Part shown: positions 41,952-50,685 of the stretch, piece by piece
Layout: every line of letters starts with the position of its first letter
Numbering within the stretch: position 1 is the stretch's first letter
Assembly: GCA_964387845.1 (NCBI GenBank)
Contig: CAYLXA010000001.1
Location: 224,001-288,000, forward strand
DNA length: 64,000 nucleotides
From: an uncultured bacterium
GTDB taxonomy: Bacteria; Omnitrophota; Omnitrophia; Omnitrophales; Abzuiibacteriaceae
Direction of reading: 5' to 3'
The notes under the pieces: generated by a model
Told to the model about the DNA's origin: nothing
What the model saw: only the letters and a program-made list of their open reading frames with translations
Database searches by the model: none
Program-made: the position numbers and the translations under genes

Positions 41952-42013
41952 TGGCTAGAGAGCGCTCGACCCGGCAAGGAAGAAGCTCTCAGGGCATTTA
42001 AGCCTTTTCGCCA
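41952..42013. repeat. ~60-bp repeat R, copy 1 (TGGCTAGAGAGCGCTCGACCCGGCA...AAGCCTTTTCGCCA)
   Basis: About 93% identical to 50625..50685. Both copies sit 200-250 bp upstream of the first gene of a minus-strand cargo operon. Confidence 0.55.
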
Positions 42014-42092
42014 ACCCTTTTCATTGCTATCTACAGCCTAAAGTCAACTCTATTCAAAGATCAAGTCCAACGTATCAAAATTTGCGCTTTCT

Positions 42093-42130
42093 CTACTGAC
42101 ACTAGATGAAAATCTATCCACACTAGATAA
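42093..42130. promoter_or_regulatory. Operator-like motif, copy B (CACWSTAGAT x2), upstream of the Ig-like/Rhs operon
   Basis: tctactgaCACTAGATgaaaatctatcCACACTAGATa; see 31885..31921. Confidence 0.45.
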
Positions 42131-42350
42131 ATCTGAAAATAAGTTTTAATAAAGTAACTATTTAGTCAAACAAAAGACCACATATTTTAGCCGAAATTAC
42201 TAACCGACTCGGCCAACCCATCACGGCTGCTTCTTCAACAAGGCTCTAAGAGAGCTCCTGTTTCCATTTCAACCTGTCTTACCCGTATCCAATAAATCCG
42301 AAGCCAGCGGATATTTCGCTTCATCAGTTTCTTGAATGTCAATTTCTGTT

Positions 42351-42899
42351 TCATTTCGCTTCACCTTTCTTCGTAACAATTGTTTGGATTTTCTCAAATT
42401 CTGAATTAGGAAAACATTTTTCAGCATGACCGTAATGTTCGGCGAGCTCTCTGATGACGTTCCAATGGCTATAAATGAACTTTGTCCAACTAGCATGATC
42501 AATTGGAGCTTCAGCCTGGATCGCATCAATTAGTTCAGAAAGAATCTTTCTTAAACTCATAGCTTCATCCGAAACAAACTCTCTCAAGCAAATTAGGTGG
42601 GCAAGCGTTTTAAACGCCTTCTTCTCTGTCGAGAAACTTGGATTCTCATGCGTAATCCCGTAAACGACCATCCCGAGAAACCAAAGCGCATGTCCGGAAT
42701 TGTGATGCTCCTGCATGAGTCTCTTGTCAATTTGAGGCAAGCTATCGGCTTGAGGCATAACGACACCCTCGAGGCCTACCGCTTCACTTTCGAGGACGAG
42801 TTTCACCTTGTTTTGATAGTTTTCCTCAAGTTGTTTAATATCGATATTTTCTTGATATTTGCTATCCTGTATTTTGTTGTCTTTTGATTGGTTAGTCAT
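42351..42899 (-). CDS. Hypothetical protein (182 aa), divergent from the XRE-cupin regulator gene
   Basis: No confident motif. A His-rich segment HHNSGHALWF is the only notable feature. Confidence 0.35.
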   Translation of the reverse strand: MTNQSKDNKIQDSKYQENIDIKQLEENYQNKVKLVLESEAVGLEGVVMPQADSLPQIDKRLMQEHHNSGHALWFLGMVVYGITHENPSFSTEKKAFKTLAHLICLREFVSDEAMSLRKILSELIDAIQAEAPIDHASWTKFIYSHWNVIRELAEHYGHAEKCFPNSEFEKIQTIVTKKGEAK

Positions 42900-43090
42900 G
42901 TCTTATTTCCACCTTTGACTGAACCTTACATGGCCTTTTTTAAAGTGTCAAGGAACTCAATTAAGATAGTTTCTGACATATTTATATCTATATTTGACAT
43001 CCCACGTAAGTTCATGTAGACTTGATACTTATAGGGTAAAACATCTTCTTTTTGACCAGTTAGCCGTTGAAACTTTTTTGAGGTTTTCCT

Positions 43091-44416
43091 GTGTATGATC
43101 AGATATTAGCCAAATACCAAGAGCTATTGCCGGGCTTCCCACAGCTAAGGCGTTCCTTGATTGGATCTATCATTAAGGAGACACGTGTTGATAAGGGTGT
43201 CCGGCAGATGGATTTTGCGAAGCAAATTGGCCTTAACGAAGCAACCCTTAAATCCATCGAGAACGACCACCAATTGGCAACCACTGTCTCAAACCTCGAG
43301 AAATGCGCCAAGGCGCTTGGTGTAAGCGTGGATGAACTTATCCTTCGGGGCCGAGAACATGACCCGGCTAATTTTTTCATCTTTAAGAAGAAAGCCCCTG
43401 CCGTTGTAAAAGGGATACGAAAGCGCAAACGTATTCAAGATGAGTGGCATGAGAGCAAACGGCTCCAATTTAGAAGTTTTGATATGACGCCCTGCTCACC
43501 GCCCATTAATACCAAAAAGGATTTTTTTGTAAGTCGCGTAGTTTTGCCTCCTAAACGTTCAATAGATCAATTAAGCTTGGGCGCTCATCATCACGTGCTC
43601 GGATTTGTTCTGGCGGGTTTTCATATCAAGATTCATTATGCGGGACAAGAATCGGTCGTAACGACAAATCAAGGGTTCCTCTTGGACGGCTTTTTTCCTC
43701 ACAGTATCGTCAATGAGGATGAAGACAACGCGGCTTTGATCTATCTCGTGACGAGAATCCCCCATCCGGAGTCCACTAAGACGAAGTTTGAAACCGCTTT
43801 AAAGACGGTTGAATCCATCGACATTGCCAAGGGCATTGAATACATCCGGAAATATAAATCAGACCGCCCTAACGTCTTGATTGCGGTCAAACATTTAGCC
43901 GACCTAACAGATTCCCTGGATCACGAGCAAATTGCAAAATTGATGAAGCTCAAGAAGGGCTCGTCTGTTATTCATTGGGCAAAGATTGAAGACTTGCTCT
44001 CGGGTGTCGGCGTTTCTATGGAAGAATTTCTGACTTGGTGCCATCATAGAGAAGAAAAACCAATATCACTTGCCACGATTTCAAGCCGCGCCATGATTGA
44101 TTTCACTGCCTATTACGGACTTAAGATTTATTCTGCCGTGCCGCCCAATGTGAATAGCGAATATTTTTTCGGCGAGCTCATGATCGAAGGCAAGAATAGC
44201 GGGAAAAAGAATTGGAAGAGAAAAGACAAAGCCATGGTTGCTATATTTGTAGAAGACGGTGAATTAGAAATCACGGTTGGTAAAAAACGAAGCGCCATGA
44301 CGCTTCTGAAGGGCGAAAGTATTTACTTCGACGGCAATCTGGGTTATATGCTAAGGAATCCTGCAACCGATCAAATGCGGGGGATTTTTACTACTTATCC
44401 TGCTGTGCAATTTTAA
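43091..44416 (+). CDS. XRE-family HTH regulator with tandem cupin-like sensor domains
   Basis: N-terminal GVRQMDFAKQIGLNEATLKSIENDH is an XRE HTH. Downstream are HxH-containing beta-rich segments (GAHHHVLGFVLAGFHIKIHY) and a C-terminal cupin-like barrel. It is the only plus-strand gene in the island. Confidence 0.5.
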   Translation: MYDQILAKYQELLPGFPQLRRSLIGSIIKETRVDKGVRQMDFAKQIGLNEATLKSIENDHQLATTVSNLEKCAKALGVSVDELILRGREHDPANFFIFKKKAPAVVKGIRKRKRIQDEWHESKRLQFRSFDMTPCSPPINTKKDFFVSRVVLPPKRSIDQLSLGAHHHVLGFVLAGFHIKIHYAGQESVVTTNQGFLLDGFFPHSIVNEDEDNAALIYLVTRIPHPESTKTKFETALKTVESIDIAKGIEYIRKYKSDRPNVLIAVKHLADLTDSLDHEQIAKLMKLKKGSSVIHWAKIEDLLSGVGVSMEEFLTWCHHREEKPISLATISSRAMIDFTAYYGLKIYSAVPPNVNSEYFFGELMIEGKNSGKKNWKRKDKAMVAIFVEDGELEITVGKKRSAMTLLKGESIYFDGNLGYMLRNPATDQMRGIFTTYPAVQF

Positions 44417-44422
44417 GAACGA

Positions 44423-49450: not shown

Positions 49451-49453
49451 TGC

Positions 49454-49831
49454 TTACACTCCCAAACAATCCATAACTGTTTTCAATAGCTCCCTTATAT
49501 CAAAGGGCTTCATTATATAAGCAATCGGATTCAGCTTTCTCGCCTCACGCTCTATATTATCATCTGCAAATCCAGTAACAAAAATAGTGGGAATTTTCTT
49601 TTGCTTTTTACTCATGTTTTCTTGAATTTGACGCACGGTTTCAACGCCGCTCAGCCCTGGCATGCGTATATCCGAAATAACAAGATCAAAGTCATCTTCG
49701 TCCATTATAGCCACCGCGTCAGACCCATTGCGCACGGTATAAACTTCGTATCCCTGCTTTTCAAGAAGCCGACTCAGAGACTTAATGAGCAATTCCTCAT
49801 CATCAATTACCAAAATTTTCTTTGCTGACAT
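49454..49831 (-). CDS. Single-domain response regulator (CheY-like)
   Basis: KILVIDDEELLIKSL...LVISDIRMPGLSG...KP. Confidence 0.75.
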   Translation of the reverse strand: MSAKKILVIDDEELLIKSLSRLLEKQGYEVYTVRNGSDAVAIMDEDDFDLVISDIRMPGLSGVETVRQIQENMSKKQKKIPTIFVTGFADDNIEREARKLNPIAYIMKPFDIRELLKTVMDCLGV

Positions 49832-49848
49832 TACACAGCTCCTGTTTT

Positions 49849-50088
49849 TTATTTGTTGTCTAGTTTCTCAATAACGTATTGAATGATATCTTGTACTTTG
49901 TTCATTTTTGCAGCATCTTCATCGGAAATCTCAATGTTAAACTCCTCTTCAATTGCCATAATGAGTTCGACCGAATCCAAGGAATCTAATTCGAGATCCT
50001 TAATCAGTTCAGAGTCAGGCGAAACTTCTTCAGGTTTGACTCCCAACTGATCACAAATGACTTCCCTGACTCGAGCTTCAATATTCAT
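49849..50088 (-). CDS. Acyl carrier protein-like
   Basis: ELDSLDSVELIMAIEEEF carries the DSL phosphopantetheine-attachment serine motif in a 79-aa acidic four-helix protein. Confidence 0.7.
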   Translation of the reverse strand: MNIEARVREVICDQLGVKPEEVSPDSELIKDLELDSLDSVELIMAIEEEFNIEISDEDAAKMNKVQDIIQYVIEKLDNK

Positions 50089-50093
50089 AACAA

Positions 50094-50435
50094 CTATTTG
50101 GCGTTGAAACCATGAGTCATTACTTTCATGCGCTGAATAAGCTTCTCGATGATTTTCATACCTCTTTGCCTACTTTCACGGGACTGCCGTTCTTTTGAAT
50201 GTAGGATCTGGATAAGTTCGCGACAAAGGTCCTTGTCTTTATCCGTAAATGCCGTTGTCACTAGTATTTCATTAATTCTATTAATGAAATCCGGAATTCT
50301 TTCTTCAAGCATTCTTTCACAATCATTAGATGAAAATGCTATGTAAATTGGGTAAAGCTTATTTCTTTGATATGCCAGCAGTCTCTTGATGGCTTCCTTT
50401 TGTACTTTTGACCGTTCAAATGTCAATTTTTTCAT
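50094..50435 (-). CDS. Hypothetical protein (113 aa), first gene of the island's two-component operon
   Basis: Position only; there is no motif. Confidence 0.3.
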   Translation of the reverse strand: MKKLTFERSKVQKEAIKRLLAYQRNKLYPIYIAFSSNDCERMLEERIPDFINRINEILVTTAFTDKDKDLCRELIQILHSKERQSRESRQRGMKIIEKLIQRMKVMTHGFNAK

Positions 50436-50624
50436 CAGATTGGTGGCAAAATTCTATCACATTTCTCTATGCAAACTGATGTGAAATAATCAGTTCGCAG
50501 GATTGGCTTAACAGTATAAATACGGCACTTTTAAGCCGTTTTTTGACTTATGATGGAATTTGAAAACAGGAGAGTTTAGCTGAATAACATTGCTGATTGT
50601 GAAATGGGTGCTATAATAAAAACG

Positions 50625-50685
50625 TGGCTAGAGAGCGCTCGACCCGGCACGGAAGAACCTCTCAGGGCATTAAGCCTTTTCGCCA
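50625..50685. repeat. ~60-bp repeat R, copy 2
   Basis: See 41952..42013. Confidence 0.55.

Follow-up and report, generated by a model that had tools for sequence, protein, structure and literature searches.

A structured intergenic repeat at the edges of a signalling module in the cargo of an integrative conjugative element: possible terminator-like punctuation and recombination joint

The stretch of DNA studied here (the window, 64,000 nt from an uncultured bacterium of the Omnitrophota) contains a 48-kb integrative conjugative element (ICE) in tRNA-Met, at window 5524-53465. The right half of this ICE is cargo, made up of a STAND NTPase, an operon for an Ig-like and an Rhs protein, a two-component cluster and an FG-GAP protein, and both copies of a short repeat, which we call E, lie within it. 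What does a repeat of about 60 bp do when it stands upstream of two cargo operons and brackets the two-component cluster? The initial annotation had proposed a shared enhancer or upstream activating sequence (UAS), a small-RNA gene, or the scar of an insertion or duplication delimiting an 8.7-kb module. In this work we tentatively favour the reading that E is a conserved terminator-like punctuation between cargo operons, doubling as a recombination joint.

Copies, edges and positions of E

Alignment confirms two copies in direct orientation, of 62 nt and 61 nt. Over 62 columns they show 59 matches, two substitutions and one single-base indel, so the high similarity first noted stands and its exact figure changes from ~93% to ~95% (59/62; blastn 95.2%). 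The similarity ends sharply at TGGC / GCCA, and the flanks of the two copies are unrelated. Because every neighbouring gene is on the minus strand, we read E as the reverse complement, that is, 5'-UGGCGAAAAGGCUUAAAUGCCCUGAGAGCUUCUUCCUUGCCGGGUCGAGCGCUCUCUAGCCA; GCCGGGTYGAGCGCTCTCTAGCCA and TGGCGAAAAGGCTTAA are stretches from its two halves, and a perfect 8-bp palindrome, GAGCGCTC, lies inside it. The copies and the genes (open reading frames, ORFs) next to them are as follows.

41952-42013, minus strand: E copy 1, with the 39-aa ORF stop 222 nt upstream, the Ig-like ATG at 41705 247 nt downstream and the start site predicted for the Ig-like promoter ~100-165 nt downstream
50625-50685, minus strand: E copy 2, 75 nt past the FG-GAP stop and 190 nt before the ATG at 50435 of a 113-aa gene
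40194-41705, minus strand: Ig-like (Glucodextran_B/Big) gene, 503 aa, the first gene downstream of E copy 1
33980-40192, minus strand: Rhs gene, 2070 aa, directly after the Ig-like gene
50760-52502, minus strand: FG-GAP gene, 580 aa, whose 3' end precedes E copy 2
42235-42354, minus strand: 39-aa ORF, unannotatable, overlapping the stop of a 182-aa gene and the true last gene of the bracketed module

Both copies follow a stop codon and precede the next operon, in the same orientation as transcription, and the measured distances of 247 nt and 190 nt agree with the ~250 bp and ~200 bp estimated earlier for the Ig-like/Rhs operon and for the operon encoding an acyl carrier protein (ACP) and CheY.

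The repeat is not due to chance: shuffles gave an expectation of 0.01 for a 19-mer and 0.00 for a 28-mer of E, and the nhmmer E-value is ~1e-20. The window holds only these two copies, no third being found even at three mismatches, by nhmmer or by a covariance model, and pattern scans and the covariance model found none in the chromosomal flanks of the ICE (16 kb). An exact 19-mer of E had only chance matches, in high-GC DNA, among 185,579 species genomes and 241 million metagenome records. DNA pattern scans of viral contigs returned nothing real, blastn ('distant') gave no match in plasmid and phage collections, and Rfam gave none, either for the whole window at gathering thresholds or for the regions of both copies at E <= 10. 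There is no similarity between E and the att repeat or the ends of the ICE. E is lineage-restricted, and it belongs to the broad class of structured intergenic boundary repeats. Its termini consist of a 4-nt inverted repeat only (TGGC/GCCA), and there is no target-site duplication; the flanks are mutually complementary instead.

Other identities were considered for E and rejected. As a coding sequence, it would have its frame shifted after codon 5 by the single-base indel; as a hammerhead or other ribozyme core, it has no match by eye or in Rfam; as a tRNA-like 3' end, it would have an unpaired T-arm.

The bracketed signalling module

The DNA between the two copies is a compact block whose gene contents were called by Pfam scans.

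42014-50624, mainly minus strand: 8.6-kb module of 11 genes, one divergent, encoding a 113-aa protein, ACP (79 aa), CheY (125 aa), a methyltransferase (339 aa), a seven-transmembrane (7TM) histidine kinase (759 aa), a 163-aa protein, a receiver (139 aa), a double receiver (270 aa), a helix-turn-helix (HTH)-cupin regulator, a 182-aa protein and the 39-aa ORF
43091-44416, plus strand: the HTH-cupin regulator of this module

Its GC content is 0.36-0.41, against 0.43-0.47 in the neighbouring genes. The relatives of the histidine kinase show at most 39% identity, yet their loci, on contigs L138-L140, L146 and L147 from other metagenomes, are syntenic. The order in L138-L140 and L147 is ACP, (methyltransferase), receiver, 7TM kinase, two receivers, divergent HTH-cupin gene, a 206/212-aa protein and a 48-aa ORF; that of L146 (ACP, CheY, methyltransferase, kinase, ~165 aa, receiver, receiver) equals the order in the window. 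The HTH-cupin regulators of the window and L139 share 57% identity, the 182-aa protein is 34-37% identical to its 206/212-aa relatives in L138-L140/L147, and the 48-aa ORF that occupies the corresponding position in L139 and L147 is a homologue of the 39-aa ORF (tblastn E = 1e-4). For the 113-aa protein there is no homologue beyond a 97% strain variant.

Neither flanking repeats nor E matches were found in the module loci of L138-L140, L146 and L147. Because the relatives' module loci are without E, E is not ancestral to the module, and still both module edges coincide with E copies. The proposal that the repeat delimits an 8.7-kb module is therefore supported, the block being syntenic elsewhere and a strain-level breakpoint abutting copy 2, as described below. 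A weak covariance-model match of E in L138-L140 was dismissed as spurious; it lies inside the HTH-cupin coding sequence and has no equivalent in the window.

Additional genes in the modules of L138/L139 (5183-17108) and L147 are a ketosynthase, a second ACP, an enoyl-CoA hydratase and a GDSL lipase, or else a shikimate-dehydrogenase-like gene. The gene content suggests that the module makes and senses an acyl-type small molecule.

Conservation of E in a second lineage

P0087, the one protein closely related to the Ig-like protein (51% identity), is encoded on the 1890-nt Logan contig L144 from a metagenome. The 285-nt upstream region of L144 is collinear with window 41706-41985 (minus strand), and it starts with CCTTAGCCGGGTTGAGCGCTCTCTAGCCAC, which matches the 3' half of E at 27 of 29 positions and lies at the orthologous place. 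The 65 nt that follow are only ~45% identical to the window. The distance from E to the -35 box is 73 nt in L144 and 68 nt in the window, and beyond this spacer the two share the promoter, a small hairpin with a CG-to-UA compensatory pair, a highly conserved single-stranded block and a long terminator hairpin. Since its orthologous position is kept, the L144 copy is ancestral and not a recent insertion. The idea of an inert scar fails here, the 3' half being conserved at 27/29 while the next 65 nt decayed to ~45%, and this conservation in a related element favours a function for copy 1. In L144, the 70 nt that follow E are nearer to the sequence downstream of copy 2 (z = 2.5) than to that downstream of copy 1 (z = 1.1), a difference too weak to use.

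The L144 contig begins exactly 30 nt before the end of E. Logan assemblies are built with k = 31 (PMC12424806), and a contig leaving a repeat should start with k-1 = 30 shared bases. A control contig, L011, shows 100% identity with the window, and its start is exactly 30 nt inside the 42-nt att repeat of the ICE. Because L144 starts k-1 = 30 nt inside E, that sample would hold E in two or more contexts that share one 3' edge, and we infer that the repeat is multi-copy there.

Predicted folding of E

When ~18 nt of flank are included, both copies are predicted to fold into the same Y shape on the minus strand (z = -2.3 and -2.0).

41942-42022, minus strand: Y-shaped hairpin of copy 1, with a closing stem from the non-repeat flanks GAAAAGGGU / A.ACCUUUUU and U5 at 41943-41947
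50618-50690, minus strand: Y-shaped hairpin of copy 2, with a closing stem from other flanks, AAGCG / CGUUU, and U5 at 50618-50622

The flanks that close the two hairpins are not homologous to each other, and composition-preserving flank shuffles gave p = 0.0185 for copy 1 and, for a strict run of 5 flank pairs, p = 0.02 for copy 2. The GC-rich closing stem has 6-8 bp (UGGC/GCCA plus flank pairs), the U-run comes next, and the 'loop' is a 54-nt branched insert. In 3/3 known copies a run of U4-5 begins 2-4 nt past GCCA (U5 in the window, U4 in L144). As modelled, E has the geometry of a terminator with an unusually large, branched and conserved 'loop'.

The internal GAGAGC/GCTCTC pairing reported earlier is complete in copy 1; copy 2 lacks its inner pair (CCTCTC, plus strand) and yet still forms an equivalent stem. 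No shared promoter was found inside or beside E. This result, the lack of an Rfam match and the weak z-scores of the bare fold speak against a small-RNA gene, although E may give rise to a transcript end or to a 3'-derived RNA.

Strain mosaic around copy 2

Contigs L016, L017, L142 and L143 of a variant strain, from SRR18669184/5, were compared with the window, and divergence was found to change abruptly along the cargo.

50694-53245: receiver and FG-GAP genes, 5.4% divergence from the variant strain
50510-50693: breakpoint interval, containing E copy 2
49323-50693: 5' part of the module, 1.1% divergence
45660-47841: kinase region of the module, 0.8% divergence
43065-45600: 3' part of the module, 9.9% divergence
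42292-43064: 3' end of the module, 7.6% divergence

The dense mismatches stop at 50693, which is 8 nt beyond copy 2, and none follows before 50510, so that divergence falls from 5.4% to ~1% within 8-180 nt of the outer edge of this copy. E copy 2 itself is identical in L016 and L017. A second mosaic breakpoint, at 45589-45658, coincides with the beginning of the 139-aa receiver gene, where divergence rises from 0.8% to 9.9% and no repeat is present.

Comparison of L016 1-333 with window 53246-53453 revealed that the cargo end of the variant adjoins the 3' end of a different tRNA-like sequence (GGTTCGATTCCGCC, anticodon loop CTGCAAA). No similarity was found between this variant cargo end and the attR-side sequence of the window, and ARAGORN makes no call on the truncated tRNA. 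Because the variant abuts what looks like another tRNA, the cargo appears to be common to ICEs with different integration sites.

E as punctuation and joint

How might one sequence account for these observations? The nascent minus-strand transcript of the gene upstream of E would fold into the Y, whose two inner hairpins are enclosed by a stem of UGGC/GCCA and 5-9 additional pairs from the local flanks, with the U5 run directly after it. This structure would end or insulate the upstream transcript, which is that of the FG-GAP operon at copy 2 and that of the 182-aa/39-aa genes at copy 1, ahead of the promoter of the next operon. Since E is the sole well-conserved stretch in fast-diverging spacers, it could also serve as a crossover point for cargo swaps between related ICEs. 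A resident E upstream of the Ig-like/Rhs operon may have been the site at which the 8.6-kb module entered by Campbell-type (single-crossover) recombination, an event that would leave one E on each side. Both termination by E and the mechanism of recombination, whether homologous or site-specific, are put forward conditionally. We favour this reading because it would explain together the orientation of E, the flank-closed hairpin with its U-run, the bracketing of the module, the orthologous conservation, the multiplicity and the breakpoint at copy 2.

Several points weigh against it. Without its flanks, the 62-mer shows no better folding than shuffled sequences, whichever strand is taken. The fold is branched and the U-run short, and a simple terminator consensus scan called neither copy. 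Terminators normally need less sequence conservation than E shows. On the side of recombination, the breakpoint at ~45.6 kb is not at an E, Pfam scans found no recombinase in the ORFs called from 42235 to 53152, and the empty site (FG-GAP-E-Ig-like) was never seen. Moreover, the known copies amount to three, two in the window and one in L144, and the 5' half of E, which falls outside the L144 contig, was never seen in a relative.

If E does act as proposed, ICE cargo in poorly sampled lineages would consist of self-contained operon modules separated by conserved structured spacers, each spacer insulating transcription and supplying a patch of homology for module exchange, even across tRNA sites. 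E would then be a sequence handle for finding module joints in metagenomic ICEs, and the coupling of an acquired signalling module to the adjacent Rhs toxin operon would become testable. E bears on no long-standing open question.

The Ig-like/Rhs leader and its complementarity to E

The region between copy 1 and the Ig-like gene contains features that the alternative readings draw on.

41964-41977, minus strand: segment 1, the E core UUGCCGGGUCGAGC
41856-41883, minus strand: TTGACC-16-TAAAGT, the sigma-70-type promoter predicted for the Ig-like/Rhs operon, with E copy 1 on one side and the leader on the other
41800-41813, minus strand: segment 2, GCUCAACCCGGCAA, conserved and mostly single-stranded in the leader fold
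41721-41797, minus strand: long leader hairpin; an intrinsic terminator within it (stem 41751-41773, U6) precedes the Ig-like ATG by ~45 nt

The L144 counterpart of the promoter is TTGACG-16-TAGATT, with key -10 positions kept. The leader fold reaches z = -5.6 in the window and -5.8 in L144, with two pairs showing double-sided changes, and in the two-sequence leader alignment 91.8% of cells are paired, compared with at most 60% in slid controls. Segment 2 is complementary to segment 1 at 13 of 14 positions, and at 14 of 14, one G-U included, in L144; the E core also shows complementarity to UCGACCCGGC, the 5' arm of the leader terminator. The 64 kb contain exactly four GCCGGGTYGAR sites, one in each E copy and two inverted ones no more than 250 nt from copy 1; at one mismatch or fewer there are 12 matches, a number reached by 0/100 shuffles. 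A 325-nt read-through RNA is predicted to form the helix between segments 1 and 2 (z = -4.3). The 7-mer GCCGGGT/ACCCGGC is present 12 times in the window, nine of them clustered in the cargo region.

A double-hairpin terminator at 32440-32500 (minus strand), after a 210-aa gene, is laid out like the Ig-like leader, with ACCCGGC, ~30 nt, ACCCGGC-loop-GCCGGGU and a U-run.

Alternative explanations

Given this complementarity, E might be a regulatory RNA, or part of one, that controls the terminator of the Ig-like/Rhs leader in an antiterminator-like way, which we consider unlikely. Its core would pair with segment 2 or with the 5' arm of the terminator, in cis on a read-through RNA or in trans as a small RNA (sRNA) derived from a 3' end, coupling the toxin operon to upstream transcription. 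The four GCCGGGTYGAR sites are confined to the E copies and the region downstream of copy 1, the long-range helix is predicted in the 325-nt RNA, the leader is itself a strongly structured and conserved RNA, and in L144 the complementarity is kept with lineage-specific bases, a C-G pair with the terminator arm having become U-A, with z = -4.5 for the duplex. However, the conserved predicted promoter separates E from the leader and, because it lies between them, E is outside the leader transcript barring read-through. Copy 2 has no complementary partner downstream, 11/14 pairs are invariant and covariation is nearly nil, the inverted partial matches are not significant alone (nhmmer E = 27-35), stems of ACCCGGC/GCCGGGT are common in terminators of the cargo region, and the predicted pairing of segments 1 and 2 leaves the terminator intact. 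A reading that combines both roles seems quite improbable to us: E would be an RNA of ~62 nt, forming the 3' end of one cargo transcript and exposing a core, GCCGGGUCGAGC, that pairs with the next leader and overrides the terminator of the Rhs operon. If it held, insertion of a module at E would automatically place the toxin operon under the upstream control of that module, and a put-like or sRNA-like antiterminator would double as the cassette joint of ICE cargo. The same two segments, as a 14-bp inverted repeat (41964-41977 / 41800-41813) flanking a 150-bp segment with the Ig-like promoter, could also be the arms of an invertible promoter switch that makes the Rhs operon phase-variable. The repeat matches at 13/14 positions around a conserved promoter and is kept in L144, and 150 bp is a size typical of invertons, but we regard this possibility as extremely unlikely, for no invertase gene was found nearby, the orientation is the same in the window, L011 and L144, the L144 contig breaks at the end of E and not at the inner edge of the inverted repeat, and the 62-nt unit and copy 2 are left unexplained.

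That E precedes two operons, and that L144 keeps its placement with respect to the Ig-like promoter, could instead point to a DNA operator or UAS for a regulator encoded by the ICE or the module, which would co-regulate both downstream cargo operons; the HTH_17-receiver, HTH-cupin and LuxR-type proteins would be candidate binders. Many regulators are encoded nearby, E contains the 8-bp palindrome, and the ICE reuses other upstream repeats that resemble shared operators (the 80-nt D1 and the 38-nt R2, described below). On the other hand, a 62-bp unit with sharp edges exceeds a typical operator, the spacing to candidate promoters is unequal between the copies, and the complementarity of the flanks is left without explanation. 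E is absent upstream of the modules in L139, L146 and L147, though L139 and L147 keep the HTH-cupin gene. The sigma-54 signature (-24/-12, GG-N10-GC) was not found between either copy and the downstream ATG, its count across the window being at chance, and no Sigma54_activat domain was found among the scanned cargo proteins. The operator is thus improbable, and the enhancer or UAS suggested at first gains no positive evidence. Another possibility is that the E copies are attL and attR of a nested integrative unit, or cassette edges moved by a recombinase acting in trans, such as the ICE integrase. Sharp-edged direct repeats do bracket a complete module that is known elsewhere without repeats, a second lineage appears to have several copies of E, there is a recombination breakpoint at copy 2, and the ICE itself uses a 42-nt direct repeat at tRNA-Met. 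Nevertheless, this is quite unlikely in view of the lack of a recombinase gene in the block by Pfam scans, the dissimilarity of E to the att repeat or ends of the ICE, the absence of attC-type R'/R'' cores from E, the other mosaic breakpoint away from E, and the absence of E past the Rhs operon, where no cassette array is therefore formed. Finally, a small non-autonomous REP/MITE-like element, spread to intergenic sites and with no operon-specific role, would share with E the sharp edges, the TGGC/GCCA inverted termini, the hairpin potential, the intergenic location and the presence of more than one copy in two lineages. We find it very unlikely, since there are just two copies in 64 kb and none in the 16-kb chromosomal flanks, exact-19-mer scans of public genomes and metagenomes gave chance matches only, no target-site duplication is seen, the position is orthologous in L144, and both copies have the same orientation relative to transcription.

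Comparison with known systems

The terminator-like reading can be compared with T1 of Tn916, an insulating intrinsic terminator of an ICE (PMC11658703). E resembles it as a hairpin with a U-run between transcription units of a conjugative element, oriented with transcription, and blocking read-through is the job that we propose for it; E differs in being branched, strongly conserved, duplicated and located in the cargo instead of at the element end, and termination by E is our proposal.

In mosaic phages and in the variable-region hotspots of ICEs, recombination joints cluster at short conserved stretches that link modules. E is similar to such linkers in that it brackets a syntenic module and abuts a strain-level breakpoint, but linkers are usually inferred from many genomes, and here one of two breakpoints is at E.

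RNA antiterminators offer another parallel. The putL and putR RNAs of phage HK022 have ~70 nt, two hairpins and two copies per genome; E likewise has two copies, ~60-70 nt and two hairpins. The 341-452 nt canT of Tn916 is a cis-acting antitermination RNA (PMC11658703), as is conAn2 of a mobile element (PMC8191782). Like put, canT and conAn2, E is a structured RNA, as predicted, on a mobile element, upstream of a terminator that precedes a long operon; this terminator lies 180 nt downstream of copy 1, with the conserved predicted promoter in between. E differs from these RNAs in that promoter, in having a U-run of its own, in the lack of any sequence or Rfam similarity, and in being followed, at copy 2, by a weak hairpin only.

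With REP/BIME, ERIC, Correia and MITE repeats, E shares a short, hairpin-forming, sharply bounded sequence in intergenic or 3'-UTR (3' untranslated region) positions, and such repeats can affect termination or mRNA stability. Unlike them, E has a very low visible copy number, no target duplication, a fixed orientation and an orthologous position, and occurs in ICE cargo only. Integron attC sites, such as the Vibrio cholerae repeats, measure 57-141 bp, have imperfect inverted symmetry, follow co-oriented cassettes and are alike within an array, all of which recall E. However, E is without RYYYAAC/GTTRRRY cores, no IntI is present, and the 'cassette' would hold 11 genes, with an internal divergent one, between two sites.

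The host ICE and other repeats

An exact 42-nt direct repeat of the tRNA-Met 3' end, at 5524-5565 and 53424-53465, bounds the ICE. The sole integrase found adjoins the left repeat.

5648-6877: tyrosine integrase

Transfer genes encode TrbI, a VirB9-like protein, VirB4, the TrbC pilin, a coupling protein and a Replic_Relax relaxase; the closest plasmid VirB4 is 26% identical to that of the ICE. Searches of viral contigs with the histidine kinase and VirB4 proteins found nothing. The ICE also holds a pair of Amidoligase_2 and glutamine-amidotransferase genes and a 1304-aa DUF4062/STAND NTPase. The best full-length relative of the FG-GAP protein (P0129, 43%) sits in loci without E.

A response regulator gene beside attR (52529-53152, minus strand) encodes an excisionase-type HTH_17/MerR helix-turn-helix as output domain, and its product could be a phosphorylation-controlled recombination directionality factor or regulator.

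The 80-nt direct repeat D1 (78% identical, 19404-19483 and 26631-26710) has its copies just upstream, in the minus sense, of the TrbC pilin operon and of the relaxase/coupling-protein operon, and is probably a shared ICE promoter or operator. A 28-nt inverted repeat upstream of the relaxase operon (26757-26784 / 26830-26857, 89% complementary, arms 45 nt apart) is a candidate oriT. The 38-nt direct repeat R2 (42092-42129 and 31884-31921, 89%, E = 2e-6) has two occurrences of ATCTAGTGT on the minus strand, with a spacing of 21 nt; its copies lie ~80 nt upstream of E copy 1 and between a receiver-like and a LuxR-type gene, respectively, and R2 looks like an operator for a regulator that binds direct repeats. 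The search for the sigma-54 pattern also brought up TAGCACCATGTTAGCA at 5687-5702 and TAGCACCGTGTTAGCA at 53335-53350 (plus strand), in direct orientation near the ICE ends, which are possible arm-type sites of the integrase.

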